Assembly (NCBI GenBank): GCA_001792535.1
Contig: MGGS01000013.1
Span: 692 to 64,691 of the forward strand
Direction: 5' to 3'
DNA length: 64,000 nt
Origin: Candidatus Woesebacteria bacterium RIFCSPHIGHO2_02_FULL_42_20
Lineage (GTDB): Bacteria; Patescibacteriota; Microgenomatia; UBA8517
A program made the position numbers and the translations under genes. Below, in pieces: positions 2,502 to 53,326 of the stretch (the stretch's first letter is position 1; every line of letters begins with the position of its first letter). The notes under the pieces are model-generated. The model had not been told where the DNA came from. It saw only the letters and a list, made by a program, of their open reading frames with translations, and ran no database searches.

Positions 2502-3440
2502 TCATACACCGGCTACTGACACTCCGGTATAGAGAATGAAAATCATCGCTAGTGTCCAGAGGATAACCGATGCCACTAGTGACACATCGGTTAAAAGCAG
2601 TTTTTCGGGTGCTTCGCTTCTGCCTTCAAAAATTAATTTCTGATACCTCATTATTCCGAATATTACTATTGGAATAGTGATCATAAGTAGTTTGTTTATT
2701 GTTGTGGTTCTTGAAATCTCGGCTAAAAGTAGCCAAATAGGAAGTGACGCCTTGGGTGACTCAAAGAAAGTAAACAGTGCCCAGCTCATCCAAGACGCGT
2801 TGCCAAACATAGTAACATAAGAGTTTAGTAATTCCTTCTGGTAGTGATTGAGGCTTTTTCTGGTTTCAAGCTTGGTTGCCTTTACAAAATTCAACTCGGC
2901 CCGGCGCTTGCCTGAGGCTAAAAATAGCGCTGTCGAGACGACACAGAGGAGAAACCACACGGAAAGATGAGCGTCGATGACTACGGCACCTGCATAGACT
3001 CTAATGATAAATCCCGATGCAATGATCAAAATGTCAGCGACAGCGATATTTTTGATCCCCAATGAATAAATGAGCTGTAAAAAAAGGTAGCCCAAAATGA
3101 GGGCAAAGAAAAGATCTCCTGCCCTGTTTGCCATGAAAAGCGATAAAAAAGCCAAAATGGCAGCAATGCTAGTGGCAACAGTCGGTGAAACCGTATTTGC
3201 CGCGACAGGTCTATTTTTTTTGGTGGGGTGGAGCTTGTCGTTTTTGGCGTCTAAGACGTCGTTAAAAACGTAAGTAGCGCTGGCGGCAATGCTAAAAACG
3301 ATGAAAGCGTAGAATGAGAAAACAAACAAATTTCTATCTAAGAGTGAACCACTAAAAAGGAGGGCAGCAAAAACCGATAAGTTTTTGATCCAATGAATTG
3401 GGCGGGTCAGCTTTATTATTTCGATCGGTAAGTAAGCCAT
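2502..3440 (-). CDS. UbiA-superfamily polyprenyl-phosphate transferase (context suggests decaprenyl-phosphate phosphoribosyltransferase-like)
   Basis: Eight to nine TM helices; Asp-rich motif NDVLDAKNDKLHPTKKNRPVAANTVS (NDxxDxxxD followed by HP.K..RP), the UbiA fold signature. Overlaps the next gene by 25 nt. Confidence 0.7.
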   Translation of the reverse strand: MAYLPIEIIKLTRPIHWIKNLSVFAALLFSGSLLDRNLFVFSFYAFIVFSIAASATYVFNDVLDAKNDKLHPTKKNRPVAANTVSPTVATSIAAILAFLSLFMANRAGDLFFALILGYLFLQLIYSLGIKNIAVADILIIASGFIIRVYAGAVVIDAHLSVWFLLCVVSTALFLASGKRRAELNFVKATKLETRKSLNHYQKELLNSYVTMFGNASWMSWALFTFFESPKASLPIWLLLAEISRTTTINKLLMITIPIVIFGIMRYQKLIFEGRSEAPEKLLLTDVSLVASVILWTLAMIFILYTGVSVAGV

Positions 3441-4447
3441 AAGAGTAGTCCACCTACAAAGAACGCGACTCCCACAATTGTATATAACTTAAGGTTTGCA
3501 TTCAAACTCAAAGAGATCACGCCCAAAAGCGCAGTTACTAACCAATAGAAAAGGGCAACTTTTCTTTTGCTCCATCCCGAGTCGAGCAGTTTGTGGTGAA
3601 GGTGACCCCTGTCTCCCCAAACGGGGGATTTTCCGGAAAGTACTCTTCGTACTATGGTGTACCCGGTATCGATTATGGGTACACCCAAAACAACAGCCAG
3701 GGTCCCAACTTTAGTCGTTGAAAGTATCGAGAGGATGGCAAGCATAAAACCTGCGAGGTTTGACCCTGCAAAAGACGGCATGATTTTTTGGGGATAAATA
3801 TGCCAAGGAAGGAAACCAAGAAAGGCTCCGGCGGTAATTGACGCGAGAATAATTACAGGCCACTGTGCAATATCGGCCGAGAACTTGAGAGAAAGAATAC
3901 CGATAAAGATTGCCGCTATGGCGACGGTTCCAGACAGTTGTCCGTCAACTCCTTTTGCTCCCATATTAAGTATGTTCATTAAAAATACTATCCAAAAGAT
4001 TGCGAAAATGTCGGCGAGAATAGGGTATTTGGATAGGTCGATTATGCCCGTTCCAAAGGGGTTATTAATAAAATTTATTCCGATGCCCGCAAGTATAGGA
4101 ATAGTCGCGGCGACTAACTGAGCTAGAAGCCTGAAGTAAGGATTGATGTCATATTTGTCATCGAGAATTCCTATGATGGTGATGAAAGTGGCAGCCAAGA
4201 GAATTGCTTGGATGTGGCTGTCTAAAGGTAGAAAGGAAGCTATGGCGAGCGCTAAGGCGATGAAAATTGCCAGCCCTCCACCGCGTGGGACAGGATATGT
4301 GTGGATGGTCTTGGGGTGAGTTGTTTTTTTAGGATCGTCGATAATGCCGATTTTCCAGGCAAACTTAATTACAACAGGTGTGGTTACGAAGGCGAGGAAG
4401 AAAGCCAATAGAACCGGGTTTATAAAGAGTCGGACAAAGTTGTTCAT
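3416..4447 (-). CDS. MraY/WecA-family (GT4) polyprenyl-phosphate N-acetylhexosamine-1-phosphate transferase
   Basis: Ten to eleven TM helices; GIIDDPKKTTHPKTIHTYPVPRGGG and ILDDKYDINP acidic motifs typical of MraY/WecA/WbpL. Not in a dcw/mur context, so a WecA-like role is more likely than MraY. Confidence 0.75.
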   Translation of the reverse strand: MNNFVRLFINPVLLAFFLAFVTTPVVIKFAWKIGIIDDPKKTTHPKTIHTYPVPRGGGLAIFIALALAIASFLPLDSHIQAILLAATFITIIGILDDKYDINPYFRLLAQLVAATIPILAGIGINFINNPFGTGIIDLSKYPILADIFAIFWIVFLMNILNMGAKGVDGQLSGTVAIAAIFIGILSLKFSADIAQWPVIILASITAGAFLGFLPWHIYPQKIMPSFAGSNLAGFMLAILSILSTTKVGTLAVVLGVPIIDTGYTIVRRVLSGKSPVWGDRGHLHHKLLDSGWSKRKVALFYWLVTALLGVISLSLNANLKLYTIVGVAFFVGGLLLWLTYRSK

Positions 4448-4465
4448 CTATTTAGATTGGTCATC

Positions 4466-4822
4466 TTAAAAATTACCCACAAGCGAAAGAGTTTTATAAA
4501 CGGCGAAGGCTGCCATGACCGAGGTGACGGCAACCGTACTGGTGAGCAATTTTTGTAAAAATTTATCTTTGATTATCTTTGCAACCCCAACGTTTACCAT
4601 CGTTGCAATTAAGGCGGTGGCAGGTGGTAAAACCAGGTATATTTTAGGTAAAAGTTGTTCGTTCCCCCTGGGCTTCCCGTAAAAAAGCGGTATCTCGGGG
4701 GGAAGGTTGTTTTGGAAAAGTAAACTGACAAAGATTGCAAGCGAGTCAATTGCCAGGCTCAGTGTGACAATTCTTTTAAACGGCAAGCCGCTTGCAACTA
4801 ATTTACGATCAGTGTTTTTCAC
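4466..4822 (-). CDS. small integral membrane protein (3 TM), unknown function
   Basis: 118-aa ORF overlapping the downstream GT-C gene by 4 nt; hydrophobic helices; no recognisable motif. Confidence 0.35.
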   Translation of the reverse strand: MKNTDRKLVASGLPFKRIVTLSLAIDSLAIFVSLLFQNNLPPEIPLFYGKPRGNEQLLPKIYLVLPPATALIATMVNVGVAKIIKDKFLQKLLTSTVAVTSVMAAFAVYKTLSLVGNF

Positions 4823-6318
4823 TCTTGGTGGATTTTACCTCGACTTTGTTGTAAGTACCAAATTTCCGCCGTCTGAATGGTTTTTATTTTTATAAAGTTT
4901 TGTTTTAGAAATTGGTTTAGTTGAGGAAAACTGTCTGCCTCGCTTAGTACGACCACGGCTTTAGGGGGGTTAGCAGCCAGATCAATTAAAACTGTTTCGG
5001 GTGAATAAAAATCCTTTACGTGATAATCTGCTACATATTTTATTGGCGGGAGCCTTTTGGCAAGGGCGTAAATTGTTGATGTGCTGCCCCAGACAAAAAT
5101 TCTGTCGTACCGGTCCGTTATAGTAGTTAGAAACTGCGCTACTTCATAGTCTCGTGGTGTATTGGAGTCAAAATTCTTGAGGTAATCGTTTATGGTTACT
5201 TTGCTTGTAGCAAATTCAAAGAAGCGGTTATAGTAACTTGAGGTGGAGTAATACCAAAACTTAAAATAAAATGGGACGACTGCAAATAGCGAGAGCGGGA
5301 TAATTGAGTAAACCTGTTCTTTCTTTGGCGAAGTTGCCAATAATGCAACCAACAGAGAAAGGGGTGGTACCGTTTGCATTAAATAATGGGGGTAGGGCCG
5401 CTCGGAAAGAGTTGCCGCAAAAAGCGTGAAGACAAGCCAAACAGTAGCAAAAGTAAAAGTAAGCGACAGTTTTTTGCGAAGAAGGTAAAGAGTAACCGTT
5501 ACAATTAATACAATTAAGCCACGAATAAGAATGGGTGCGTTACGCTCTAAAAACGGCGCTTGCGTTTCATCTGGCCTCCAGGAAGATAAATATCCGACGT
5601 TTTGAGCAAAAGCGGCGCTTATATATTGGCTTAATCCGCCCCGAAAATAATACCAAGCGAAAGTTAGAAGTATAGGGGTTGCAAACCCGATGGCTAATGG
5701 AAGAGCTTTTCTTGCAGTATTAAGTAGTCCTTTAATGTTAAACGTCTCTTTAAATAGCCAAATTATAATAATTACAGGCAGATCAAAGGCAGCTGGGATT
5801 TTAAACAGTGTTGCAAGCGAAAATAAAGCTCCGGCGATTAGTATTTTTTGAGTATTTAGTTTTCCGGCCAAGAGTAGTAGAAAAGCAGCAACACTTAGTC
5901 CAATCATAAAAACTTCGGAATTGGCTATTTGACCTTCAAAAAGCGGGATTGTAGACAAAAGTGCAAAAACAAACGTGGCAACTTTTTGAGCCTTCAAGTT
6001 TTTGGGAAAGAGCCTTTTGGTAAGTTGCCAGAAAATTACGATGTAGACTATATTCCAAAGCGCAAGGATCATTCTAAACCAAAAAACGCTTCCGGCAATT
6101 GCAGCAAGGACATAAAGGAGAGGCGGTTTGTTGTCATGGATGTCGCGGTAAAGCACCAAGCCTTGGCGTATTCCTTCTCCCAGAGTTAAATAAATCATTT
6201 CATCGCCATAAGCGTAGGGCTCAAAAAAAGAGGGAATTCGAAGAATAAAAACCAAAACTAGTGTCGCAATTAACCAATTGGGTAGCGAGGCACCGACGAT
6301 TTTTTTGAGGAGTTTCAT
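4819..6318 (-). CDS. GT-C fold glycosyltransferase, ArnT/PMT (GT39/GT83)-like
   Basis: N-terminal YGDEMIYL ... KPPLLY (the DE and PPL motifs of PMT_2/ArnT enzymes), about 11 TM helices, then a C-terminal soluble domain of about 150 aa. Confidence 0.7.
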   Translation of the reverse strand: MKLLKKIVGASLPNWLIATLVLVFILRIPSFFEPYAYGDEMIYLTLGEGIRQGLVLYRDIHDNKPPLLYVLAAIAGSVFWFRMILALWNIVYIVIFWQLTKRLFPKNLKAQKVATFVFALLSTIPLFEGQIANSEVFMIGLSVAAFLLLLAGKLNTQKILIAGALFSLATLFKIPAAFDLPVIIIIWLFKETFNIKGLLNTARKALPLAIGFATPILLTFAWYYFRGGLSQYISAAFAQNVGYLSSWRPDETQAPFLERNAPILIRGLIVLIVTVTLYLLRKKLSLTFTFATVWLVFTLFAATLSERPYPHYLMQTVPPLSLLVALLATSPKKEQVYSIIPLSLFAVVPFYFKFWYYSTSSYYNRFFEFATSKVTINDYLKNFDSNTPRDYEVAQFLTTITDRYDRIFVWGSTSTIYALAKRLPPIKYVADYHVKDFYSPETVLIDLAANPPKAVVVLSEADSFPQLNQFLKQNFIKIKTIQTAEIWYLQQSRGKIHQE

Positions 6319-6340
6319 TGTTAATTGAGTTTAGCAGGTA

Positions 6341-7693
6341 TTATCTTGCCAGCAAAATAAACTTTAATTCGCCAAACTCCTTAACAAGGCCTTGCCTATA
6401 GTTTTCGATTTTAACTTCGTCGGGGTTTCCGCTGGTTATAACACCCACCCGAAAGGTTTTTTTGGGAATATCGTTTACAATGTCGTTTTCAGTCATTTGA
6501 GCCGTTCCTACATAAAAAGGCAACTCGGCTCCGCTTGGGACGTATAAAGGAGCTTCTAATTTATAGTATTTTGTTTCCCAAATGTGATGGGCGGCAGCAT
6601 TCCAATTAATGAGAAAGTCGTCGCCGCGTTTGACCTCGTGGATATATTGGGCGAGTTCCCGAAAAGGTCTCTTTGTGGGGTGGACGAAATATTGGTAGTC
6701 GACGAAGACGAATACTATTAGCAAAATACCCAATAAGACACCCGAGACTTTTCTGGTATTGGTTGCAAGCAAGATCATCGCGGCAGGGATTGTGTAGAGT
6801 AGGTAGCGGTCGAAAAAGATCGACTGAAATTTTTGGGAGACTGACCAGGTGAGCACTATTGGTCCCAAAAACCAGGAGAGCAAAAAGGTTGATTTGGCGA
6901 CGTTTGTGCCCCACCGTCGCACAATATATGTGGTATATGTTAAATACAGCCCGTAGCGTGCTAATTTATTTGGCAACCCCTCCGCGATATATTTTTGTAT
7001 GAGTCCGCGCAGGTCGGTTAGATTTGGTGTTGCGAGCCAGAACCCGGAGCCGACGAGTGTTGTTTGGTAATAAAGTGCAGACAGCCAGGGTGCGTAAATT
7101 AAGCCGATTGCCAGATATGACTTAAATATATTAAACGCCGTCTTTCTATGTCCCCAAACTGCAACTTTTACGAACCATAAGCCTTGGATAAATATGGCAA
7201 ATAGTGCAAAATGATGGCTGTAGAGTGCCCAGGAAGTACCAATAACATACCCCAAATAATCTTTGAAACTTGCTCGCTTTCGTACTCTTCCAAGCGTGTC
7301 GGTTTTTGGAAAAATTATTTTTGCAAAAAAATACATCGATATAGTGACACCGGCAGCTAGTATCGAATACATCCGGCCCTCAAATGCATACTGGAAGAAG
7401 AAGGGATTAAAAAAGGTAAAAGCGGTGGCTAAGATTGCGGCTCTTCGATTCCATAGCAAGGCCGTAATTTTATAAACGAAAAAGATAGCAACACAATAGT
7501 AAACAAATGACAGCGCTCTTATTGCCACTTCCCCGTCGCCGAATATTTTATACCAGTAGTGAAGCGTGAGGTTATACAGCGGTGGGCTGGTGTCACGGCT
7601 GATTATTTCCAAAATTTTCGGTACGGAATTTCTTGAAAGTACAGCGCTAAACGCTTCGTCCCCCCAAAGGCTTTGATTGAATACAGTTTGCAT
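6341..7693 (-). CDS. GT-C fold glycosyltransferase, ArnT/PMT-like (paralogue)
   Basis: WGDEAFS ... SPPLYN motifs, multiple TM helices, C-terminal soluble domain; same architecture as 4819..6318. Confidence 0.7.
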   Translation of the reverse strand: MQTVFNQSLWGDEAFSAVLSRNSVPKILEIISRDTSPPLYNLTLHYWYKIFGDGEVAIRALSFVYYCVAIFFVYKITALLWNRRAAILATAFTFFNPFFFQYAFEGRMYSILAAGVTISMYFFAKIIFPKTDTLGRVRKRASFKDYLGYVIGTSWALYSHHFALFAIFIQGLWFVKVAVWGHRKTAFNIFKSYLAIGLIYAPWLSALYYQTTLVGSGFWLATPNLTDLRGLIQKYIAEGLPNKLARYGLYLTYTTYIVRRWGTNVAKSTFLLSWFLGPIVLTWSVSQKFQSIFFDRYLLYTIPAAMILLATNTRKVSGVLLGILLIVFVFVDYQYFVHPTKRPFRELAQYIHEVKRGDDFLINWNAAAHHIWETKYYKLEAPLYVPSGAELPFYVGTAQMTENDIVNDIPKKTFRVGVITSGNPDEVKIENYRQGLVKEFGELKFILLAR

Positions 7694-7700
7694 AATTTAA

Positions 7701-8861
7701 CTATTTTGGGTACCAAACAAGGTATGTTCTTAGTGAATCCCACTCATCCTCTGATAAGTCGTTAAAAAAGTTGGAATAAATTTCATCCGAGCATAGGACT
7801 TTTTCAACATTTTTGCCGCTTTCCCAAACGAACCAGCAATCATTGAAAAAGGGATTGTATATAGTGTGATCAAAAAAGATTCTGCCGCCGGCATCGGCCA
7901 AAAGAAAAGGAGCCAGGTAGTCAGAAACATAATTTCCCTCCGGCTTTACGCGATTAAAATATAGGTTGTTAGAATAGTGTTCTTCAGCCACGTTATAAAT
8001 TGTGTAAACATAGTTTTCCTTGGTAGGTTCCAGTTGGAGGGGTAAAAGGCCGAAATTCCAGAAACGCTCTATACTGGTTGAAAAGTGGGTAGTAACTTTT
8101 CCTTTTAGAATCGTTTGGGCACCGGTATTTATATCAAGCACGACATCTTTGGTCCCCGTCAGTAATACTTTATTTTGTTTCAGCGAGCCGACAGCGCCGA
8201 AGTAGTAATAAGTTTTTGTAGCCGGTAGTGGGAGGCTGGAAATGTTTTTGTACTCCTGATAATCGTAAATTTGGATTTTGTTTAGATTGCAACTTGAAGA
8301 GTCTGTTATTGAAGGCGTGTTTGTTGACACAAGAAGCAGATGGTTTTCGATGCCCCAGTCGATAACGTCTATCTTTCCGCAATCGCCGCCGATTCTGAAT
8401 TCAGCTAGCTTTTCAGGCCCGTGAGTTTTCAAGTCATATCCCCAAACTTCCTGTTTGTTTTTTTCCCATTCCAGGACAGACAGTATAACCAATGGATAGT
8501 ATCTTTCAGTTTCTAACTCAATCTCTACATAGGCGTCTGAGGGTTTATTGGCTACTTTTTTGAACTCTGTCGTATCAATCTCTTTTCGCCTTAGTGAAAC
8601 TTCTTTTTCGTATTCAAAATAGGGGTGGGAAAACGCAGCGCGCGTTAATTTTCTGGTTTCTACATTCAGTTCCCAGTACGTTTCGTTTTTATCATATTCT
8701 CCCACTGGTTTTGATCCGAGCCCAGTATCTGTATAAAAAACCGCAGTCTCTTCGGTGGAAGTGGGTGTAGCGATGCCGTTATTTTTGTTGGCAATGAGAA
8801 AAATAATGGCAAGAAAGACAATGATCAAAATTGGGATTAGAATAAACCCCCTTTGCTTCAT
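7701..8861 (-). CDS. secreted/membrane-anchored hypothetical protein (candidate glycosylation target)
   Basis: N-terminal signal anchor MKQRGFILIPILIIVFLAIIFLIA, then a 360-aa soluble domain rich in Thr/Ser/Tyr; last gene of the GT-C block. Confidence 0.45.
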   Translation of the reverse strand: MKQRGFILIPILIIVFLAIIFLIANKNNGIATPTSTEETAVFYTDTGLGSKPVGEYDKNETYWELNVETRKLTRAAFSHPYFEYEKEVSLRRKEIDTTEFKKVANKPSDAYVEIELETERYYPLVILSVLEWEKNKQEVWGYDLKTHGPEKLAEFRIGGDCGKIDVIDWGIENHLLLVSTNTPSITDSSSCNLNKIQIYDYQEYKNISSLPLPATKTYYYFGAVGSLKQNKVLLTGTKDVVLDINTGAQTILKGKVTTHFSTSIERFWNFGLLPLQLEPTKENYVYTIYNVAEEHYSNNLYFNRVKPEGNYVSDYLAPFLLADAGGRIFFDHTIYNPFFNDCWFVWESGKNVEKVLCSDEIYSNFFNDLSEDEWDSLRTYLVWYPK

Positions 8862-9197: not shown

Positions 9198-10058
9198 ATG
9201 GGGGTAATTGCAGGGTTACTGGCGATGTCTTTCTGGGGAACGGCTATTTTTTTGGCCGCACTTGCTTCTCGTAAATTAGGAAACGTATTGACTCTTTTTT
9301 GGATGCAGCTTTTCGGGTTTCTGGTTGGTCTTGCTTACTTTCTATTCAACTTAAATTCATTTACTTTTTCTAGAATTTCTCAAAACGCACCGGTCTTACT
9401 TTTAGTGGCAGTGTTTCAGGTAATTGCCTATCTTGGTTTTTACAAAGGACTGGAAAAAGCAGAAGTTTCCTTGGTTGGTCCGGTTGGTGCAGCTTGGGGA
9501 TTGGTTGTCGCAATCTTAGGTGTAATATTTTTGAAGGAGGTCTTAAGTACCCCTCAACTTTTAGCAATAGGACTTATTATTGTTGGTATTATACTCCTTT
9601 CGGTTAATATAAAGGATTTAGTAAGTTCTAAAAAAGTTAATCTTTTGGTTGGTGTTAAAGAGGGGGTTATTGCAATGCTGGGGTGGGGAATATCGCTATA
9701 TCTTTTGGTCTTTCCAAGCAAAGACTTGGGGTGGTTTTTACCGACAATAACTTTCCGTTTTATGGTATTAGTAATTTTGGTAGGATATATTCTTTTTTCA
9801 AAGGGAATTTTCGTTCCAGATAAAAAGAAGTTTCCAATAAAACTTCTTTTAGCAATCGGCTTTTTTGATATTGGTGGATTTTTTGCTTATTCATTTGGAG
9901 TGGCAGGAATACAAGCTTCTATAGTCGCCCCGATCGGTAGTGCTTTTGCACTGGTATCTGTGCTTTTGGCTAAAGTATTTTTAAAAGAGAAGATTGACCA
10001 ATATAAGACAGTTGGAATATTGGCTATTGTGGGCGGGTTAGTTCTCATGTTCGTTTAA
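9198..10058 (+). CDS. EamA/DMT-family transporter
   Basis: 286 aa, ten TM helices in a 5+5 duplicated arrangement typical of the drug/metabolite (EamA) superfamily. Confidence 0.65.
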   Translation: MGVIAGLLAMSFWGTAIFLAALASRKLGNVLTLFWMQLFGFLVGLAYFLFNLNSFTFSRISQNAPVLLLVAVFQVIAYLGFYKGLEKAEVSLVGPVGAAWGLVVAILGVIFLKEVLSTPQLLAIGLIIVGIILLSVNIKDLVSSKKVNLLVGVKEGVIAMLGWGISLYLLVFPSKDLGWFLPTITFRFMVLVILVGYILFSKGIFVPDKKKFPIKLLLAIGFFDIGGFFAYSFGVAGIQASIVAPIGSAFALVSVLLAKVFLKEKIDQYKTVGILAIVGGLVLMFV

Positions 10059-10092: not shown

Positions 10093-10806
10093 ATGACTTG
10101 GGAACTCGACCCGGACCTCAGGCAAAGATCCGAAGCCATACTAGAGACAAAATCTGACCGTATAGGTCGTGCGTATTGGGATTCTCGATTGAAAAGAAGC
10201 CTTGACCTAGTGGCATCTGGCATGAGTCTGCCGTTTGCCTCCTTCCCCGTTGTCTTGGGGGGGTTAGCTATCTTAGCTAGCGACAGACACAATCCATTAG
10301 TCGACGTTGGTTACGATCTTTTGGATAGCGGCAGAAAAACCAGACATTACAAAATGAGGACAATGGTACCCAATGCTCAGGTGCTCGAGGCAGAAGTTGT
10401 CGGTGGAATGTTGCTAAAAGATTTCAAAAAAGGAAGAAGAGATCCTAGGGTTACTAGAGTTGGTAAGTTTTTAAGAAAGACAACTCTTGATGAGTTGCCA
10501 CAGCTGATTAATGTTTTACAAGGAGACCTTTCGATGGTTGGACCAAGGATGCCTTCGATGACCGACTGGGGGTATATAAGAGAAAATAGAGATTCGGAGC
10601 CTTATAAAAGTTTTATTGATCTTCTGCATGAGGGGTTGAAAATTGGAGCTACCGGTTTTTACGGAATCATGGGTAGGTCAAATTTAGATATGGGAAATAG
10701 GCTTGGTTTGGATGTTGTTTACGGAGAAAAAGCCAGTTTTAAGGGCGACTTAAGAATAATTGGATTGACTTTCCCGATATTTCTTTCAAGAAATAAAAGC
10801 GCATGA
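10093..10806 (+). CDS. small monotopic phosphoglycosyl transferase (bacterial sugar transferase; PglC/WbaP C-terminal-domain type)
   Basis: Single re-entrant hydrophobic segment, then KMRTMVPNA ... TLDELPQLINVLQGDLSMVGPR: the KxRSM and DELPQL...GxMSxVGPRP signatures of polyprenyl-phosphate hexose-1-P transferases. Confidence 0.8.
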   Translation: MTWELDPDLRQRSEAILETKSDRIGRAYWDSRLKRSLDLVASGMSLPFASFPVVLGGLAILASDRHNPLVDVGYDLLDSGRKTRHYKMRTMVPNAQVLEAEVVGGMLLKDFKKGRRDPRVTRVGKFLRKTTLDELPQLINVLQGDLSMVGPRMPSMTDWGYIRENRDSEPYKSFIDLLHEGLKIGATGFYGIMGRSNLDMGNRLGLDVVYGEKASFKGDLRIIGLTFPIFLSRNKSA

Positions 10807-10815
10807 TTTTTTAAA

Positions 10816-12309
10816 TTAGACCTTCTCGGTAACGCGGTACTCGATATATTTTCCAAGCATGAGGCGGGTGTGGGCGTCGAGGCCAGGGAGAGCCGAGAAG
10901 AAAAACCCGGCTATTGGCATCAAGACAAATTCCAAAGGCATAAGAACAGCCCTCCACAAGGGAAAGTCTTTGGGTCGCTTGGGTTTATAAATGTTGTCAA
11001 AAATAAGCATGACAACCAAGAATCCCAAAGAAAGGGTTAGGATAAAAGAAGAAATTTTTGGTAGCATAAATCCGATTGTCGTCCTTCCAAAGGTGGGGTT
11101 TAAGAATGTCGGGATGGTAAGCCCCAGCGTGATAATAAACCAGTTGACCGGCCACATAAAATGTGACCATGTTACGTGAACCAGGCGCATTGTTTTATTG
11201 AAAAACGGCACGCTTGGTTTAAGAAAATAATCCCGCATGATCCAGGGATAGTCGGATACTCCCCAGGCCCACCTTCTATATTGTTCATATTGGTTTTTGA
11301 GAGTTTTCCAAAAACTGGTGGACTCGGCGGCGTCGATGTACAAAGGAAGGTAAATAGGCTCGACTTCGACCTCACCGTGGTTGATGTAGAATGCTTTGAA
11401 AAATATGCCCCAGTCCTCCGGAATTTTGTCTGGGTCCCAATAGCCGGATTCGTGGAGCAACTTAAACGAAAGGCTGTAGTTTGCTTGGTTCAAGAGCCTG
11501 TCCCGACGCGGGAGAATTGACAAATTCCAAATTGACCCCATTGTATTTTGTATACGAGTGATTGCCGGGAGTCGCCAAATGTTGTTGTAGTAAAGTATTG
11601 CCGCTTGCCAAAACATTAAATGCCTTTTGGGATTGTCTAAAAATTTGTAAGTAAGACACGCAAAGTGATTTGGGTGGTAAACGTGGTCGGCGTCGCAACT
11701 GGTGACTGTTAAATAATTTATGTCCATTTTTTGTTTATTAATCAGTTCGTTGTATACCCAGATAGCGGCGTACCTCTCGTTGCTTGCTTTACCGACAATC
11801 TCGCCCTTGGCTAGTTCGTGGACAGTGACGAAGAAGTTTGCAAATTTTTTGCCAAAAGTCTTTTGAAGATGGTTTGCTTTTTTAGTTCTTTCGCCTTCCT
11901 CTTCTCTCACTTCCATTGCCAATGCAACCGAGATTTGTTTTAAGGGTAAGGTTTGATTCACTATGGCATTAAAAGTTCGCTCTAGGGTGTGAAGTGGTTC
12001 TTTGTAGGTGGTTAGGATAATCACATTGTGGACTTTTTTCCAATCCGGAAAGCTTTTGACGTCGGCTGTCCAGTCAAACCTCATTGCGGCCTGAATTCTG
12101 AAATGAGAGATAAAAGAGCTAATGGCAATCTGAAATGACTGGTAAAACCAGTAAATGTCAAAAAATAAAATGTAATACGCCGCGACAAACGGCATAACAA
12201 AAATTCCCCAATAGGGAAAAAGTATCAAGTTCCATGAAACAAGCCCTGGAACTATCTCAAAAAAACGTAGAAATCGCTTCTCGTGTTTAGCTATAAATTG
12301 TTTGACCAT
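10816..12309 (-). CDS. processive GT2 glycosyltransferase, cellulose-synthase-like
   Basis: N- and C-terminal TM helices flanking a GT-A domain with ILTTYKEP, SCDADH (DxD), PEDWG and QYRRWAWG (QxxRW) motifs. Confidence 0.7.
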   Translation of the reverse strand: MVKQFIAKHEKRFLRFFEIVPGLVSWNLILFPYWGIFVMPFVAAYYILFFDIYWFYQSFQIAISSFISHFRIQAAMRFDWTADVKSFPDWKKVHNVIILTTYKEPLHTLERTFNAIVNQTLPLKQISVALAMEVREEEGERTKKANHLQKTFGKKFANFFVTVHELAKGEIVGKASNERYAAIWVYNELINKQKMDINYLTVTSCDADHVYHPNHFACLTYKFLDNPKRHLMFWQAAILYYNNIWRLPAITRIQNTMGSIWNLSILPRRDRLLNQANYSLSFKLLHESGYWDPDKIPEDWGIFFKAFYINHGEVEVEPIYLPLYIDAAESTSFWKTLKNQYEQYRRWAWGVSDYPWIMRDYFLKPSVPFFNKTMRLVHVTWSHFMWPVNWFIITLGLTIPTFLNPTFGRTTIGFMLPKISSFILTLSLGFLVVMLIFDNIYKPKRPKDFPLWRAVLMPLEFVLMPIAGFFFSALPGLDAHTRLMLGKYIEYRVTEKV

Positions 12310-15438: not shown

Positions 15439-16416
15439 TTGAACATGAACGAAGTACTCCTTTTTGTGACTGTTTTGATAGGCTTTGTCGTATTAGGCTA
15501 TTATGTTAATCGCAAACTTTCGGAGTTTGGTGACAAACAAAAACCAGCGGATGAATTACTTGAGTATCTGCGTACTACCAATACCCGTCTCGATGAACAA
15601 GGTAAAAACTTTAATGCCAGGCTAGATAACGCGGCCAAGGTGATTTCCGATGTTCAGAAAAACATTGGTGAAATGAGCGAAATTGGCCGAAGCATGCGCG
15701 ATTTACAAGAGTTTCTTAAAAGCCCCAAGCTACGCGGCAATGTCGGCGAGCATGTATTAAATGAGCTCTTGGGTCAAATGTTGCCTAAGCAATCCTTTCA
15801 TCTGCAGTATTCTTTTAAGTCGGGAGAAAAGGTAGATGCTGCTATCAAAACAACGGCCGGGATTATTCCGATTGATTCGAAGTTTCCGATGGAGAACTTT
15901 CGCAGAATGATGACGGCGGATTCTGATGCGGCAAAAAAAGATGCAGCGAGGCAGTTTGTAAAAGATGTCAAAAAACACATAGACGACATATCCCAAAAAT
16001 ACATTTTGACCGAAGAGGGGACTATCGATTATGCCTTGATGTATGTGCCCTCGGAAGCCGTTTATTATGAAATTGTGAATGACGCCGGTCTTTTTGATTA
16101 TTCGGGAACAAAAAGGGTATTACCGGTTTCGCCCACTACTTTCTATGCCTATCTTAGGGCGATTTTAATGAGTTTCGAAGGCCAAAAAATTGAATCGAAA
16201 GCAAAAGAAGTACTCGCCTCAATCCGAGCTATTCAAAAAGATTATGCAAAAGTGGATGACAATTTATCTGTTTTGCGCAAACACATACGCAACTCGTATA
16301 AGTCGCTGTCGGGTTTACAAGTCTCTTTTTCGGCCTTGGGTAGTAAAATTTCCTCTGCGGGTAAACTGGAAAACAGGGATGGCAAAAGTCTAGGAGATTC
16401 ACAAGATGAAGAGTAG
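15439..16416 (+). CDS. rmuC: DNA recombination protein RmuC
   Basis: N-terminal TM anchor, long coiled coil, conserved C-terminal RmuC region (KLRGNVGEHVLNELL ... YVPSEAVYYEI ... VLPVSPTTFYAYLRAI). Confidence 0.8.
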   Translation: MNMNEVLLFVTVLIGFVVLGYYVNRKLSEFGDKQKPADELLEYLRTTNTRLDEQGKNFNARLDNAAKVISDVQKNIGEMSEIGRSMRDLQEFLKSPKLRGNVGEHVLNELLGQMLPKQSFHLQYSFKSGEKVDAAIKTTAGIIPIDSKFPMENFRRMMTADSDAAKKDAARQFVKDVKKHIDDISQKYILTEEGTIDYALMYVPSEAVYYEIVNDAGLFDYSGTKRVLPVSPTTFYAYLRAILMSFEGQKIESKAKEVLASIRAIQKDYAKVDDNLSVLRKHIRNSYKSLSGLQVSFSALGSKISSAGKLENRDGKSLGDSQDEE

Positions 16417-17074
16417 TAATAAATTTTCTTCAAAACTTATTTTAATACCAACCTTGCTTGTGGTTGCCATTTCTTTTTTGATTTTAACTATTTCTGGATT
16501 TAACTACGACAACCTTTCAGGACTTGTAACTTCTTACGGTGTTTTAGGGGCCGTGTTCTATATGGCCCTTGGTGTTTTGAGTATAGTCTTGGCGCCGACG
16601 TCGACAATTCCGCTTTGGCCGGTAGTACTCGGAGCTTACGGCTTCTGGGTTGCAGTTATTTTGACTTGGGTTAGTGGTATTGTGGGTGCGATTGTTAATT
16701 ATTATATAGCCAAAATATTTGGCCGACCGGTTGTAAAAAAACTAATTGGTGAAAAAGCTTTATCGGAGGTTGATAGGATAGCTGGAATTGTCGGTTGGAA
16801 AGGTTTGGTGGTTGTTCGAACGATCGGTAATGCTTCTTTTGATTATGCTTCATACGCATTTGGATTAGCGAAGTATAATTTTAAAAGTTATCTTGCAGTT
16901 ACGGCAATTACAACTTTTTTTTGGGATGCAGCTGTTTTCTTTTTTTTAGGCAAAGCTATATCTTTAACCCTAATTCCGTCAATTGCAGTGATGATAGGCA
17001 TGTATTTTTTAGCCGTATTTATAGGTGTTAAAGTTTGGCGGTACTACCTCAAAGTTGAAAAGAAGAGTAAATAA
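16406..17074 (+). CDS. DedA/TVP38-family membrane protein
   Basis: Six TM helices with the GxxxV/Y...G pattern of SNARE-associated/DedA proteins; overlaps rmuC end by 11 nt. Confidence 0.6.
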   Translation: MKSSNKFSSKLILIPTLLVVAISFLILTISGFNYDNLSGLVTSYGVLGAVFYMALGVLSIVLAPTSTIPLWPVVLGAYGFWVAVILTWVSGIVGAIVNYYIAKIFGRPVVKKLIGEKALSEVDRIAGIVGWKGLVVVRTIGNASFDYASYAFGLAKYNFKSYLAVTAITTFFWDAAVFFFLGKAISLTLIPSIAVMIGMYFLAVFIGVKVWRYYLKVEKKSK

Positions 17075-20007: not shown

Positions 20008-20240
20008 ATAAGATTAAAATTTTGGTTGAGGGATATGCGAGGGTGAATTCTGACGGAACCTGGGACTCGACGTCGTCGACTACGTGTTTGTAACGCATTA
20101 TCACCCTGGCCACTGCCCCGAACACGCGTCGCTTCTGGTTAATACCGAAAAAGGGAAAGTAGTTGTCGCGGCCGCAGAAAAAGGCTTTTGGAGATGGCAG
20201 ATTTTATAATCCCCGGCCACGGAAAGATATTTAAAGTAAG
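20005..20240 (+). pseudogene. decayed MBL-fold metallo-hydrolase gene (frameshifted, internally deleted)
   Basis: Three frames carry fragments MNKIKILVEGYARVNSDG... / ...LDVVDYVFVTHYHPGHC... (degenerate HxHxDH) / ...IIPGHGKIFKV (typical MBL C-terminus) within 236 bp. Confidence 0.45.
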
Positions 20241-20655
20241 ATGACGGAGTTAGCAGAGATAACAGAAGAATCTGTTGATCACTTTGTTACACAGTTGCAA
20301 GCAGACAGGGTCAGGGCACTTAGCCGTGTTGAACCTGGGTCTACTGCGGCCTCAGTGCTAGGAGATCTTTATCCTCTGCTTCATGGGCCACTCTATCCTA
20401 GAAGAAAAAGTGCAGAGATAGCAACAGCTTAATCTTTTTGCAGTTTTAGCAGAGCCGACTGCCGAGGTAGAACTCCCATATTTGGCTAGAGCAGTTCAGG
20501 CTTTCCAAAGACCGGGATTGGCTGTTAACTCTACGGCTCTTCTAGTAAATTGGCCGGCAAAAGCGTCAAGAACCCTGGAAGGCATTACTCATAACTCTTC
20601 GTTGAGAGATGAGATTGACAAAACAGGCATATTTAGTGAGATCGAAAATATGTAG
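20241..20655 (+). pseudogene. unidentified decayed ORF(s), locally GC-rich
   Basis: A 63-codon ORF (20241..20432) is followed in another frame by a 77-codon start-less open frame to 20655; both Ala/Arg-rich, unlike neighbouring genes. Likely a frameshifted remnant. Confidence 0.3.
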
Positions 20656-20660
20656 GGGAT

Positions 20661-20924
20661 ATGGAAAATCTGGATACTAAATTAAAGAGGTGGTTGGTAA
20701 AGTTTTTGGCGCGTCAAAGAAGCTACGTTGACGTGGACACGAGAATACTGGGGATTGAGGCAAATACAGAGTTGGCTATGAGACAGAAAATTGGGAGGAG
20801 GATGGCTGAAGTTTCAGGACCCGGTCTCTCGCTTGGTTTGACTACTGAGAATAATCCACAGCTATTAAGATGTTATGGTAAACACGTATATTTGGCAAAC
20901 ATAGACGTTAGGTCAAAACAGTGA
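20661..20924 (+). CDS. hypothetical protein (87 aa)
   Basis: ORF with ATG start directly after the decayed region; no recognisable motif. Confidence 0.3.
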   Translation: MENLDTKLKRWLVKFLARQRSYVDVDTRILGIEANTELAMRQKIGRRMAEVSGPGLSLGLTTENNPQLLRCYGKHVYLANIDVRSKQ

Positions 20925-20997
20925 TTAAAGAGTTGGAGTTTAAACTAACGAGTTCCCATTCCGACTCTTTTAAACACAGGAGACAACGACTGGCCGT

Positions 20998-21486
20998 TTA
21001 AGGGTGGGAAGCGATTTTGAGTGCATATTTAGCATAAAACTTCACGTGTTTTTTGAGATTGTATCTCGGGTCGTCTAACTCTTCTTTTGTAAACCATTTG
21101 TGTCTTACTACATGTTTGTCCCTTGATTTTTTAACAGTGCTAGCGGTTGTCAGAAAGTATCTGAAGCCAATATGAAAATGATTTTTGCCGGCCTCGTGGA
21201 TATCTGAAAATGTTGGTGTCACAATGTTATGACCTTTCAAATCACTAAAGATATTTTCCTCAGGAATACTCTTTCTAGGATCGATTAGCCCAATTTCATT
21301 TTTAGTTATTCCGGTTTCCTCTTCTATTTCACGAAAGATACTCCCTTCGATGTTTTCGTCGGGGTCGATATGACCTCCTGGTGGAAGCCAGAGATAATAT
21401 CTATCGTTATAAATCAGCAGAACTTTATTTTTTTTGACTATAAAACAACTTACTGTGTAATCGAGGTATTTGCTGGTATGCGCCAT
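20998..21486 (-). CDS. NUDIX hydrolase
   Basis: NUDIX box GGHIDPDENIEGSIFREIEEETGI (Gx5Ex7REUxEExGU). Confidence 0.8.
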   Translation of the reverse strand: MAHTSKYLDYTVSCFIVKKNKVLLIYNDRYYLWLPPGGHIDPDENIEGSIFREIEEETGITKNEIGLIDPRKSIPEENIFSDLKGHNIVTPTFSDIHEAGKNHFHIGFRYFLTTASTVKKSRDKHVVRHKWFTKEELDDPRYNLKKHVKFYAKYALKIASHP

Positions 21487-22270: not shown

Positions 22271-23257
22271 CTAATTTGTATACTGAAAAAGTTCGGGGTT
22301 AATTTTCCAATCAGGCGTGGGATAGTTTGTCCCCCAAGCTTCTGGACTATCCACAGCATTAAAATAGGAGATTGTTTTAAGAAGAGGGTAATTATAACTA
22401 CTGTTTACAGCATCTAGAAACCATTCTTTCTGGAATTGGTCATCGCCCGTTACGCCAAACTCAGTGATTATTATTGGTTTATTATACACCTTGAAGATAT
22501 TGTATTTTTCTGAAAATATCTCGTCAAAATCTCTTACCTTTCCGTAATTGTCTATGTCCCATTTGGGGTATATAAAAACCGATAAGCCAATAAGATCAAC
22601 ATATTCGTTACCGGGCCAGTAATTGTTGGCGTTTTTGTGGCCAACCGGGGACCATATATAAAAGTTTTTTGAATCAATACTTCGGCATTTATCGACAAAA
22701 TATCTGAATGCGTATATAAAGCTGTCATGGTCTTCTTTTGCCCAGGGGTATCTTTCTGTTACGTTTTCCATTTCGTGACCCCAGCGGACAAATACTGGAT
22801 TTTTGGAATTTTTAAAATCAGCGCATATAGTGTCGATTTCTCCGTCATACAGCCCATCAACGATATCGGTTAGCAAAGAAGTGTTTTTTTCCTGGCTGCC
22901 GTCTTTGCTGAATGGCTCGACAGTAACCATTGGCCAGCGATTTTTTTGAAATACATTTTCGAAAAACTCATCAAGATTTCCCTTTCGGTACTCGTTCCAC
23001 TTAATAAATTGATGTTGAATTGCCATTGTGTTTACTTTATCAAAGTGGTCTTCAGGGTCGTAAACCCCGAAATTTATTGTAATATTTTTCCATTCTAGGT
23101 TGCAGTTTTTCTGCAAAGGTTTTAATCCGGAGTTACACAGGATTGATTTGTATCCCCAAGTAATTCCGCTAATGGCAGACGTGCCACGGGTTACAATTGC
23201 AGATATGGGAAATATGAACAAAACCAAACCGAAAATTATTAGTAGAAATCTTTTCAT
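22271..23257 (-). CDS. secreted clan GH-A glycoside hydrolase, GH26-like (beta-mannanase-like)
   Basis: Signal anchor; VRWGHEMEN (acid/base Glu in the W.R.GHE.N context of GH26) and IIITEFG (nucleophile Glu in an ITE motif). Start overlaps the upstream GT2 stop by 1 nt. Confidence 0.55.
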   Translation of the reverse strand: MKRFLLIIFGLVLFIFPISAIVTRGTSAISGITWGYKSILCNSGLKPLQKNCNLEWKNITINFGVYDPEDHFDKVNTMAIQHQFIKWNEYRKGNLDEFFENVFQKNRWPMVTVEPFSKDGSQEKNTSLLTDIVDGLYDGEIDTICADFKNSKNPVFVRWGHEMENVTERYPWAKEDHDSFIYAFRYFVDKCRSIDSKNFYIWSPVGHKNANNYWPGNEYVDLIGLSVFIYPKWDIDNYGKVRDFDEIFSEKYNIFKVYNKPIIITEFGVTGDDQFQKEWFLDAVNSSYNYPLLKTISYFNAVDSPEAWGTNYPTPDWKINPELFQYTN

Positions 23258-24837
23258 TATTTATTTTCTCCGTATAATTTATTCTCTCTAAGATGGTTTC
23301 CGATAATAGCAAAGAGTGAAAGTGTGTAGGTAAGAGCATTTAGTATTGCAAAATAGTAATAACCATAAACTCTGTTTGACGCGTTTCCAAGGAGTGTAAT
23401 ATAACTCGATAGAATAATTATCAAAAGATATGGCGTTAACATGAAAATGGGTAATGGTTTTTTACCTGACTCTCCCTTTGTAGTCACTTTAAAAGAGACT
23501 TCCTTGCGAGAAAGGCCGGCAAGTAAACCGTATAATACTCCTGCTAAAATCCACGGCCATCTGACTATCTGAAAAATAAATGTTTCCCAAGAGATAATTT
23601 TTGAGTTAACAGGCCTTAGCAACTGTATTTTTTTAATCCATAAAGTAATTCCTAAAGCAACAATGGTAGTTAGCCAAGAAATAAAACTAAATGTAATGTA
23701 AGTTACGTTAGCCCACGGCCTATTAGTTAGTATTGCAAATATAGGCAGGCCATATGCAAAAACCATTGTTGTTGAAAAAAGTGGATACCAAAGTTGGGAA
23801 AACAAAAATTGCACCTTAAGTTTCAGAGGCAAGCTTTTTATATATTTAGGGGTAATGGTTAGCAGAATTATGACCAAACTTCTTGTCCATTGAAATTCTT
23901 GTATCATGCTGTCTGGGAAACTTCCGGCACCGTCGCCATGAGCAATAGCCTCAAATGCGTGAACACCCTTCCAGCCAAATGAATTCATCATAAGCGTTGT
24001 TGAATGGTCCTCTGCCAGTTCAGGGCCTAAGCCCCCAATTTCCTTGAGTGCTTTGGTGCGTACGGCATAATGCGATCCGATACAAAGTGGCGCCCATCCG
24101 GAGTTATAACCCGCTTGCAGGGGGCCATGAAGTGTTGCTTCGGAGTAAAGCCTGGCTCTTGCAGCCCAGCTTTTGTCCGTATTGGCATCGCAAATACTCG
24201 GCGCTGATACATATCCGACTCTGGGATTTGCAAACGGCCGTAGCATTTCTTCCAGGTATCCCTGTTCCGGTACGTGGTCGGCGTCCATTTGAACAACGAA
24301 CTCGTAGTTATCATAACCCCAACGATCGTAAAAGTAAGCTAGGTTTCCCTCTTTGCATTTAGTCCTTCTCGGCCAATTCTCACGATGGTATTCTACAACC
24401 CCCTTTCTGGTTGAAATAAATACGCGTTTTTGTTTGCACCAAGCAATTACTTCGTCAGTGGGGTTTTCATCCGCAAGCCAAGTGTCGTGGGGATATTTTT
24501 GGTTAAGCATCGCAGTGAGTGTCTTTTTGACTATTTCAAAAGGTTCTGATGGCGCTTTTGTGACTACCATTGCAACTCTAAGATCATCTGGAATTGGAAG
24601 GGCGGGGTTTGGCTTTTTCATTCTCGAGGCGAAAAAGAAAAAATAGGCGGGCATTAGCATGTTCCAAGCAATCAGCAGGCTATTGAAGACAAAACTCAAT
24701 TTTCCGACTACATGTGAAGGGTCGAGCCACCAAATCCAAAAAACAGCAACAAAGAAAAGCCATAGGCTAAGTAATATATAAAAAACCACCCTTTGCCTTA
24801 GGTTCATGACATCAACAAGATATGGCACTCTTTTCAT
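23257..24837 (-). CDS. processive synthase-type GT2 glycosyltransferase (cellulose/chitin-synthase-like)
   Basis: Two N-terminal and four to five C-terminal TM helices; VVTKAPSEP, QMDADH (DxD), LAEDHSTT (TED) and IQEFQWTRS (QxxRW variant with Q replacing R). Confidence 0.7.
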   Translation of the reverse strand: MKRVPYLVDVMNLRQRVVFYILLSLWLFFVAVFWIWWLDPSHVVGKLSFVFNSLLIAWNMLMPAYFFFFASRMKKPNPALPIPDDLRVAMVVTKAPSEPFEIVKKTLTAMLNQKYPHDTWLADENPTDEVIAWCKQKRVFISTRKGVVEYHRENWPRRTKCKEGNLAYFYDRWGYDNYEFVVQMDADHVPEQGYLEEMLRPFANPRVGYVSAPSICDANTDKSWAARARLYSEATLHGPLQAGYNSGWAPLCIGSHYAVRTKALKEIGGLGPELAEDHSTTLMMNSFGWKGVHAFEAIAHGDGAGSFPDSMIQEFQWTRSLVIILLTITPKYIKSLPLKLKVQFLFSQLWYPLFSTTMVFAYGLPIFAILTNRPWANVTYITFSFISWLTTIVALGITLWIKKIQLLRPVNSKIISWETFIFQIVRWPWILAGVLYGLLAGLSRKEVSFKVTTKGESGKKPLPIFMLTPYLLIIILSSYITLLGNASNRVYGYYYFAILNALTYTLSLFAIIGNHLRENKLYGENK

Positions 24838-49959: not shown

Positions 49960-50976
49960 AAAACCAGAGGAATAGATGTTGACCCTGAAAAATCAAAGGC
50001 AGTAAAACGAGCTTTTGAAATGTTTGCGGAAGGAAGTCATACTTTTACGGATATTGCCAAATATCTTCATAAATTTGAATTGGGGCGCAAAAACGGGAAA
50101 CCACTTCATATCAACGAAATCCGGCAAATACTCTCGAATAAGTTTTACGTTGGGATAATGTTTTATAACGGTGAGTATCACGACGGAAACCACAAGAGTT
50201 TTGTTTCCAAGGAGCTATTCCAGAAAGTACAAGAGGAAATGCAAAGACGGAGTAAACATTTCAAAAAGTCATATCATTTCCCGTTTTTAGGACTAGCAAG
50301 GTGTAGCGAATGCGGCGCGGCGATCACGGCCGAGCAACACATCAAGTTTTACAAAACCACCAACCGCAAGGTTACTTACGTTTATTATCGTTGCACCAAA
50401 AAACTTGGTCCATGTTCTCAAACGCCAATTACCAATTTTGAAATGGAGGAACAATTAAGAAAAGTTGTTTCTGATGTCGTGCTTCCGCAGTCTTGGGCAG
50501 ACCAGTGGTTGAAATTTTTGGAACGAGACGAGTTAGTCGAAAAACAATCATCAGGAACAACTATCCAAAATCTCAAAACTGAAATTCAAGATCTAGATCG
50601 AAAACAAAACACACTTTTGGACAGTTATCTTGATAGCGTTGTTGATCCTGAAACTTATAAATCTAAGAAAAACGAAATGTTCGAAACAAAACTTAAATTA
50701 CAAGAAGAAATCGTCAAAGTTGAGGAGACGGGTTCGAGTTGGCTCGAACCTATGAGAAATTTCGTAAATTGCGCCTTACAGGCGCAAAAAATCGCGCGCG
50801 CAAAAAATAATTGCGAAGAATTAGCATTCTTCGCAAAACGTGTCGGCTCGAACTTCTTTTTATCCAATCGGCAGCTCTCAGCAGAGCATAAAAAGGGCTT
50901 TGCGGCGCTCCGTGCGGGCGGCGGCGCACGGAGCGCCTCCACCGACTCTATCGATTTTTCTCTCTTGGTCGCATAG
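49960..50976 (+). pseudogene. 5'-truncated large serine recombinase (lacks catalytic resolvase domain)
   Basis: Homology begins at TRGIDVDPEKSKAVKRAFEMFAEGSHTFT and runs to the stop; about 90% aa identity to residues 165-536 of the recombinase at 57432; Ser-nucleophile N-terminal about 165 aa absent; ends at a TTGGTCG core junction (50965). Confidence 0.75.
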
Positions 50977-53310: not shown

Positions 53311-53326
53311 CAAGGAAAAAATAACA

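Follow-up and report, generated by a model that had tools for sequence, protein, structure and literature searches.

A conserved Woesebacterial gene cluster pairing a predicted polyprenyl-phosphate phosphoribosyltransferase with GT-C glycosyltransferases: a probable system for extracytoplasmic pentofuranose glycosylation

The closest described relative of the gene cluster considered here is found in Citrobacter youngae, in which a polyprenyl-phosphate 5-phosphoribosyltransferase (PPPRS), a homologue of the mycobacterial enzyme Rv3806c fused to a HAD phosphatase, makes undecaprenyl-phosphate (Und-P)-ribofuranose from phosphoribosyl pyrophosphate (PRPP) (Kelly et al. 2024, PMC11127046). A MATE protein is the predicted flippase, and in the periplasm a glycosyltransferase (GT) of the GT-C type, family GT136, attaches alpha-Ribf to the O antigen; in the O1/O2 genes these are ORF15 (PPPRS-PRP), ORF14 (MATE flippase), and ORF12 (GT-C/GT136) (PMC11127046). 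PPPRS, flippase, and GT-C make up a “three-component” pentofuranose system, for which the addition of alpha-Ribf and Xylf was shown biochemically in Citrobacter. An added epimerase of the short-chain dehydrogenase/reductase (SDR) class leads to Xylf, and homologues of DprE1/E2 lead to Araf (PMC11127046). The systems listed by the same authors include no example from the candidate phyla radiation (CPR, or Patescibacteria) (PMC11127046), and literature searches that combined CPR bacteria with decaprenyl, DprE1, or UbiA turned up nothing of relevance. A block of genes at positions 2502-8861 in a 64-kb stretch of DNA (the window, taken at its full length) from Candidatus Woesebacteria bacterium RIFCSPHIGHO2_02_FULL_42_20 probably encodes such a system in this lineage. 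Judged from sequence, it is best described as a Woesebacterial extracytoplasmic pentofuranose-glycosylation system built on a PPPRS and GT-C enzymes.

The central protein is of the UbiA family, 312 amino acids (aa) long and encoded at 2502..3440 on the minus strand, and was classified from the list of open reading frames (ORFs), Pfam, NCBIfam, and the PDB. It contains no extra domain of the kind that would represent a fused phosphatase. Could it be a conventional prenyltransferase (MenA, CtaB/heme O, UbiA, or a lipid-ether type) that lies beside glycosylation genes by coincidence? The Pfam UbiA match (PF01040, 70.6 bits) and the generic NDxxDxxxD motif would suit such an enzyme, and JGI pipelines name many homologues “4-hydroxybenzoate polyprenyltransferase.” The possibility is nonetheless a very slight one, and is effectively refuted by model scores, the PDB match, and invariant residues. 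The NCBIfam models for the decaprenyl-phosphate enzyme (DPPRS) score 205.6 bits (NF008977, cutoff 234) and 202.2 bits (NF008978, cutoff 207). Against these values of about 205, the heme-O, UbiA, and chlorophyll-synthase models reach 20-38 bits (heme-O synthase 38, 4-hydroxybenzoate prenyltransferase 24, ChlG 24), the remaining UbiA-subfamily models score at most 34, and no MenA model matched in the NCBIfam scan. The sole PDB sequence match is Mycobacterium tuberculosis Rv3806c (8j8j/8j8k; E 7e-37), with which the protein shares about 38% of 224 aligned residues, as counted by eye; no other UbiA-superfamily structure in the PDB matched at E below 0.01. The conserved linkage to the glycosylation genes, described below, also speaks against coincidence. 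NCBI already labels some Woesebacteria homologues (P0021) “decaprenyl-phosphate phosphoribosyltransferase.”

The substrate-binding residues give the same answer. A cryo-electron microscopy study of Rv3806c assigned R22, K87, R90, Y138, K143, and K208 to binding of the PRPP pyrophosphate, N73, D77, and Q135 to Mg2+ and ribose, K28, Y70, and Y157 to the 5-phosphate, and K28 and K191 to the lipid phosphate; the phosphoribose-binding residues are absent from ordinary UbiA enzymes (PMC10994848). All 13 are kept in the window protein, 12 of them identical and Tyr157 replaced by Phe, a change also seen in some mycobacteria. At the pyrophosphate site the equivalents of the six residues are R13, K74, R77, Y125, K130, and K195, in the same order; elsewhere N73 corresponds to N60, Q135 to Q122, K28 to K19, Y70 to Y57, Y157 to F144, and K191 to K178. 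Among 32 sequences (the window protein and 31 orthologues) the NDxxDxxxD motif (N60, D61, D64, and D68) is invariant, as are K19, Y57, and Q122, the binders of ribose and 5-phosphate, and the binding residues are kept in at least 31, with the exception of K208 (26/32). Scores far higher on the DPPRS models than on those of the other subfamilies that matched, a sole PDB match to Rv3806c, and retention of the binding residues therefore lead to rejection of the MenA/CtaB alternative. The protein groups with the DPPR synthase (Rv3806c) type, as the original prediction had supposed, and its predicted activity as a PPPRS (DPPRS) homologue is strongly supported by sequence.

What surrounds this gene? 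The six co-directional minus-strand genes that had been reported at 2502-8861 are present with their quoted motifs, according to the ORF list and a reading of the motifs, which are invariant among orthologues of the block proteins. Upstream of the PPPRS gene lie, in order, genes for a WecA/TagO-like polyprenyl-phosphate N-acetylhexosamine (HexNAc)-1-P transferase of the PNPT superfamily (GT4; 3416..4447, 343 aa), a small protein of an uncharacterized family with three transmembrane (TM) segments (4466..4822, 118 aa), GT-C1, a conserved glycosyltransferase of the GT-C fold with a C-terminal extracytoplasmic alpha/beta domain (4819..6318, 499 aa), GT-C2, a PMT_2/GT39-like GT-C (6341..7693, 450 aa), and a signal-anchored protein (7701..8861, 386 aa). 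Overlaps of 4 to 25 nt had been claimed. Two are real, namely, that of 25 nt by which the 3′ end of the WecA-like gene runs into the start of the PPPRS gene and that of 4 nt between the 3-TM and GT-C1 genes; the remaining neighbors are separated by 7-22 nt. A scan for promoters and terminators gave no signal above chance.

Conservation was assessed in 40 genome loci fetched around relatives of the UbiA protein, with ORFs called and clustered. Of these, 37 are Woesebacteria-like. A UbiA protein from Iainarchaeum (L039) is not a PPPRS and was disregarded. A core of GT-C1, 3-TM protein, WecA-like transferase, and PPPRS is uninterrupted and co-directional in 31-35 of the 40 loci, the gene overlap is conserved, and an independent gene call with Pfam marks gives the same arrangement. 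The core proteins share only 45-66% identity across the loci, and because the arrangement recurs in 31-35 of them at such distances, it is beyond what chance would produce. The proposed linkage of the UbiA protein to a WecA-like transferase and GT-C enzymes is tight and conserved. The guess that the DNA comes from a CPR bacterium was also right, since the best homologues are from metagenome-assembled genomes (MAGs) of Candidatus Woesebacteria and Microgenomates; a ribosomal-protein operon in the window is consistent with a small chromosome. On the far side of the PPPRS gene, a convergent gene for a membrane-anchored PEGA + SH3_3 protein follows directly in 35 of the 40 loci (e.g., L009:10957-11835). 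It is not in the window, where an M23 peptidase gene (1752-2456) occupies that place.

The 343-aa protein matches Pfam Glycos_transf_4 (PF00953) with 80.5 bits and carries a DRGHLHH motif, read from the sequence. The NCBIfam WecA model (TIGR02380) gives 111 bits, far under its cutoff of 326, and MraY models give 43-56 bits; the PDB match is to MraY and is weak (E 2e-8). The protein is putatively WecA-like rather than MraY-like. Its gene is found in 37 of the 40 loci, every time directly upstream of the PPPRS gene.

The 118-aa protein has three hydrophobic segments and is encoded in 35 of the 40 loci, between the GT-C1 and WecA-like genes. It defines an unannotated family with a near-invariant loop, LPPExPLFYGxPxGxxQL, in the alignment, and with 563 representatives in a library of 1.84 billion sequences, nearly all of them small, stand-alone proteins without an informative fusion. 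Pfam gives no match for it, nor a GtrA, SMR, or MatE match for any of 47 members of the family. Membership of the GtrA/SMR flippases was considered for this protein and rejected, given the missing Pfam match in the 47 members and the lack of an informative fusion among the 563 representatives. Its gene position alone makes it a candidate for either a flippase or an accessory subunit. When six PPPRS clusters, annotated or external, were searched with a profile hidden Markov model (HMM) of the family, none of their proteins matched.

The two GT-C enzymes differ in how widely they occur. GT-C1 belongs to the conserved core and GT-C2 is accessory to it, since only 12 of the 40 loci carry GT-C2. 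Both have the expected motifs, YGDE37-40 and KPPL64-67 in GT-C1 and WGDE10-13 and PPL37-39 in GT-C2. GT-C2 matches Pfam PMT_2 with 32.7 bits (cutoff 26.1); GT-C1 has no Pfam match itself, although 14 of 30 orthologues match PMT_2. Comparison of the two families by hhalign found no relationship, and they are therefore not recent paralogues. Sequence and profile searches of PDB sequences with GT-C1, GT-C2, and a neighboring GT2 protein yielded nothing useful, so fold comparison was needed; it showed the GT-C fold of GT-C1, with mannosyltransferases and ArnT as the best structural matches. For GT-C2, relatives beside other PPPRS genes are known. Its family profile matches a GT39 gene that adjoins PPPRS in Haloterrigena (E 1.7e-46; 31% identity over 167 aa by BLASTP), and a homologue also adjoins PPPRS in Natronococcus. 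A GT-C1 HMM found no match among the proteins of the six annotated or external clusters, nor did tblastn with GT-C1 against plasmids.

Some structural details of the two proteins can be added. GT-C2 starts about 10 residues before its WGDE motif and lacks the first TM helix of canonical GT-C enzymes, which is present in GT-C1 and, unlike in GT-C2, in the Haloterrigena homologue; the ORF is not extendable upstream, and 12 of 12 orthologues share the same start. Many GT-C1 homologues (P0121 etc.) carry the accession PF27757 in precomputed Pfam annotation, and this new family may cover GT-C1.

Which donor do the GT-C enzymes use? The reasoning that led to a lipid-linked pentose had leaned on the absence of a GT2 donor synthase of the Dpm1/ArnC kind. 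That holds within 2502-8861, but a GT2 protein does lie nearby, a cellulose-synthase-like integral-membrane protein of 497 aa (10816..12309, minus strand) encoded next to methionyl-tRNA synthetase (MetRS) and syntenic in 30 of the 40 loci. In some genomes it directly abuts the GT-C genes, giving a contiguous row of six genes with GT2 first (L042). For this analysis, enzymes of the DPMS/GtrB/ArnC type were defined by a GT-A domain, one or two (up to four) C-terminal TM helices, no QxxRW, and structural similarity, a definition that does not include the 497-aa protein. It carries the D,D,D,QxxRW signature, and its structural alignments with HAS and BcsA extend over 354-372 residues, those with DPMS, GtrB, and ArnC over 195-207. 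It is cellulose-synthase-like, not a donor synthase of the Dpm1/ArnC/GtrB type, and is possibly a backbone synthase. Its top structural match is PcManGT, a dolichyl-phosphate-dependent mannosyltransferase.

This neighbor bears on a second alternative, that the GT-C enzymes use another donor, either a polyprenyl-P-hexose made by the neighboring or an unlinked GT2 or a polyprenyl-PP-glycan transferred as by an oligosaccharyltransferase, with the PPPRS product serving elsewhere. The synteny of the GT2 and its resemblance to PcManGT would fit, as would the mannosyltransferases and ArnT among the matches of GT-C1, the lack of detectable homology between GT-C1 and PPPRS-associated GT-Cs elsewhere, and the occurrence of GT-C2-like GT39 genes without PPPRS on plasmids of Salmonella and Serratia. 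The sole known fate of the PPPRS product, however, is as precursor of a GT-C donor (PMC11127046, PMC10994848). Moreover, PPPRS is never split from GT-C1 in at least 31 loci, whereas the GT2 is often separated by unrelated inserted genes, and the signature and longer alignments just described place the GT2 with HAS and BcsA. An alternative donor is accordingly rated as unlikely.

A third possibility, that of an arabinan-like pathway, concerns the sugar itself. Polyprenyl-P-ribose would be converted to polyprenyl-P-arabinofuranose by DprE1/DprE2-type enzymes encoded elsewhere, and the GT-Cs would be arabinofuranosyltransferases. In its favor, synthesis of decaprenyl-phosphate-arabinose (DPA) begins with a homologue of the PPPRS, the combination of a WecA-type primer with GT-C enzymes parallels the logic of arabinogalactan (PMC11127046), and clusters of PPPRS, DprE1-like, DprE2-like, and GT39 genes exist outside the Actinobacteria, e.g., in Chondrinema. 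DprE1 (with a query that is identical in length to PDB DprE1 and matches it with 1058 bits) and DprE2 (with a query unconfirmed in databases) were searched by tblastn against the window and about 700 kb of the 40 loci, and no match was found (best E 3.9-6.8). In the characterized and annotated systems, epimerase genes lie within the cluster (PMC11127046; Chondrinema locus). The label “arabinan-like” that the block had been given is thus not upheld, and ribofuranose becomes the default sugar because no DprE1/DprE2 homologue occurs in the window or the 40 loci. The arabinan-like pathway is a doubtful alternative. One SDR was considered as a lipid-sugar epimerase resembling ORF13 and rejected: this 314-aa protein, encoded in 20 of the 40 loci and not in the window, is a UDP-glucuronate decarboxylase (UXS) that matches human UXS1 with E 1e-104.

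The polyprenyl-phospho-pentose route feeding the GT-C enzymes, put forward in the original prediction, is the best reading because the UbiA protein is of the PPPRS class, its linkage to the WecA-like and GT-C genes is conserved, and the GT2 is not of the Dpm1/ArnC/GtrB type. The pathway may be envisaged as follows. (i) PPPRS would move ribose-5-phosphate from PRPP to polyprenyl phosphate, giving polyprenyl-P-ribofuranose-5-P, a step with strong sequence support. (ii) A phosphatase encoded elsewhere would take off the 5-phosphate. (iii) To judge from the lack of a linked epimerase, no epimerization would follow, and the donor would most likely stay polyprenyl-P-ribofuranose rather than become an arabino- or xylofuranose. 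(iv) The donor would be flipped outward, speculatively by the 3-TM protein, the only conserved membrane protein of the cluster without an assigned role, or by a genome-specific EamA transporter. (v) GT-C1 and, where present, GT-C2 would transfer the pentofuranose at the outer face of the membrane; the fold has been shown, and the donor is suggested by linkage. (vi) The acceptor may be a surface or wall glycan primed with polyprenyl-PP-HexNAc and started by the WecA-like enzyme, which appears translationally coupled to PPPRS, and the synthase-like GT2 may elongate this primed glycan. The O:54 antigen of Salmonella, which is WecA primed and synthase dependent, offers a precedent for the last step.

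A bolder version, to which only a small chance is given, would make the four-gene core a self-contained minimal machine that polymerizes a ribofuranose-based (pentofuranan) wall polymer on lipid-PP-HexNAc, with the 3-TM protein as flippase or GT-C subunit. If this were true, the pentofuranan would correspond in function to mycobacterial arabinan or to teichoic acids and would be a defining polymer of the Woesebacteria envelope, and the 3-TM family would add a class not known before to the flippases of lipid-linked sugars.

Several observations weigh against the pentofuranose route. The PPPRS scores fall slightly under the NCBIfam equivalog cutoffs. The GT-C1 family has no sequence similarity to any GT-C adjoining PPPRS elsewhere, so its use of the PPPRS product is argued from gene linkage only. 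Pfam and NCBIfam scans of the larger window ORFs revealed no FAD_binding_4 oxidase, classical SDR, HAD, PAP2, or PHP protein; no phosphatase of the HAD, PAP2, or PHP families occurs among the scanned window ORFs or the conserved neighbors, nor a MATE, GtrA, or SMR flippase in the conserved cluster. Because the conserved cluster lacks these families, the phosphatase and flippase steps depend on putative proteins. The absence of an epimerase covers about 760 kb around the cluster. Finally, a lipid-linked hexose could still be the product of the GT2, because PcManGT is presumably dolichyl-phosphate dependent.

Not all genes of the block share in its conservation. The 386-aa protein has a single N-terminal hydrophobic or TM helix (residues 6-24), no Pfam or NCBIfam match, and no orthologue in any of the 40 loci. 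It is for this last reason considered genome specific and outside the conserved system, and the suggestion that the “secreted protein” is the acceptor is not supported. Beyond it are two accessory insertions on the plus strand, divergent in the case of the first: an EamA/DMT transporter with 10 TM segments (9198..10058; Pfam EamA, 95.9 bits) and a small monotopic phosphoglycosyl transferase (10093..10806; Pfam Bac_transf, 118.5 bits; NCBIfam EPS_sugtrans, 135 bits, under cutoff). The transporter lies near the cluster in one other locus only (L010); since DMT/EamA transporters also neighbor PPPRS in Haloterrigena and Marivivens, it is a possible lipid-linked-sugar flippase. The Bac_transf gene was not found in the other 40 loci.

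These three genes fill a slot that in other genomes is empty or is taken up by a UDP-xylose synthase or by unrelated genes. The idea that this slot, which separates GT2 from the GT-C genes, is a cassette for glycan diversification was rejected on account of the unrelated genes that other genomes hold there. In 20 of the 40 loci the UDP-glucuronate decarboxylase (UDP-xylose synthase) mentioned above is encoded on the opposite strand between GT2 and GT-C1 (e.g., L009:5993-6937), a hint that, in the genomes concerned, UDP-xylose is supplied to the same glycan.

Elsewhere in the window, a DedA/VTT-domain membrane protein is encoded at 16406-17074 on the plus strand, 8 kb from the operon. The DedA/VTT family is implicated in the recycling (flipping) of polyprenyl phosphate, and this member could serve the lipid-carrier cycle of the operon. 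A second synthase-type GT2 (Glyco_transf_21/Glyco_trans_2_3, 526 aa; 23257-24837, minus strand) overlaps the gene of a GH26-like glycoside hydrolase by 1 nt (22271-24837 for both, minus strand), and the two look like a separate exopolysaccharide synthase/hydrolase pair. The region 50020-59042 holds three serine-recombinase genes (50020-50976, 54047-55591, and 57432-59042), a terminase small-subunit-like gene (51142-51576), and a PfkB sugar kinase. The sole tRNA of the window, a tRNA-Pro on the minus strand (58927-59000), overlaps the end of a recombinase ORF, and the region probably represents a mobile element, or what is left of a prophage, integrated at a tRNA. In the roughly 1.4 kb of 20008-21424 there is no ORF of at least 90 aa, no tRNA, and no Rfam match at the gathering threshold.

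Why might such a pathway matter to these bacteria? CPR bacteria, whose genomes are tiny, rely on contact between their surface and their hosts, and to our knowledge there is almost no experimental knowledge of their envelope glycopolymers. The retention of the whole operon across Woesebacteria, beside housekeeping genes, implies that the cells have an important surface glycan decorated with, or built from, a lipid-linked pentofuranose derived from PRPP. The PPPRS-GT-C pentofuranose pathway would thereby be extended to the CPR, with GT-C2 homologues tying it to haloarchaeal clusters. The 312-aa PPPRS, the two GT-Cs, and the 118-aa membrane protein are clonable targets for biochemical assays and for the prediction of envelope sugars.

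How, then, does the locus compare with the systems already known? Like C. youngae, the window has a PPPRS of the Rv3806c type, with the same catalytic motifs, next to one or more transferases of the GT-C fold; in both, the lack of an epimerase implies a ribofuranose donor and a WecA-type enzyme primes, or in the window would prime, the acceptor glycan. Unlike C. youngae, the window has neither a fused or adjacent HAD phosphoribose phosphatase nor a MATE, GtrA, or SMR flippase, and has the 3-TM protein instead. Its GT-Cs are PMT_2/GT39-like or unclassified, its WecA-like gene is inside the operon and overlaps the PPPRS gene, and, in place of an envelope with a lipopolysaccharide O antigen, its CPR host presumably has one of the Gram-positive type. 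With the mycobacterial DPA/arabinan pathway (Rv3806c, Rv3807c, DprE1/DprE2, Rv3789, and Emb/Aft), the locus shares the first enzyme family with its substrate residues, a predicted lipid-linked pentofuranose donor for GT-C enzymes outside the membrane, and a putatively WecA-primed acceptor. It differs in that the searches here yielded no DprE1/DprE2, PAP2 phosphatase, or GtrA-like protein and in that neither GT-C1 nor GT-C2 resembles the Emb/Aft families; for these reasons, the sugar is probably not arabinose. The ArnT/Und-P-L-Ara4N and Gtr/CsbB-GtcA-YfhO systems are more distant, as their donor comes from a GT2 (ArnC, GtrB, or CsbB) and a nucleotide sugar, whereas here a UbiA-fold phosphoribosyltransferase would draw on PRPP.

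Other clusters are known from annotation only, and their PPPRS proteins are 28-37% identical to that of the window, with values of 28-33% for the haloarchaea, Legionella, Chondrinema, and Lactococcus. They include a 462-aa unannotated protein/PPPRS/HAD/GtrA cluster on Lactococcus cremoris pF27D, PPPRS/FAD oxidase/SDR/GT39s in Chondrinema litorale, PPPRS/GT39 in Legionella adelaidensis, small EamA/PPPRS/PAP2 in Marivivens, and a Clostridiales MAG locus with PPPRS near a MatE transporter. Plasmids of the haloarchaea Haloterrigena sp. KLK7 (L045) and Natronococcus sp. CG52 (L050) carry GT39/PPPRS/PHP/LPG_synthase_TM/DolP-Man-type GT-C/NAD epimerase, which points to an as yet undescribed system of pentofuranose glycosylation in archaea, one that uses another phosphatase and another flippase. 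As in the window, PPPRS in the GT39 clusters adjoins a GT-C of the PMT_2/GT39 type, the haloarchaeal GT39 being a true GT-C2 homologue. Unlike the window, these clusters carry phosphatases (HAD, PHP, or PAP2), flippase candidates (GtrA, DMT/EamA, or LPG_synthase_TM), and often epimerases, and none has the core of WecA-like, 3-TM, and GT-C1 proteins. Overall, the principle is already published (PMC11127046) and partly captured by automatic annotation, in which P0021 is named DPPRS, and no new biochemical principle is involved. What is new here is the host lineage and the composition of the system: a PPPRS coupled to a WecA-like transferase and partnered by a 3-TM protein, with no linked phosphatase, known flippase family, or epimerase.

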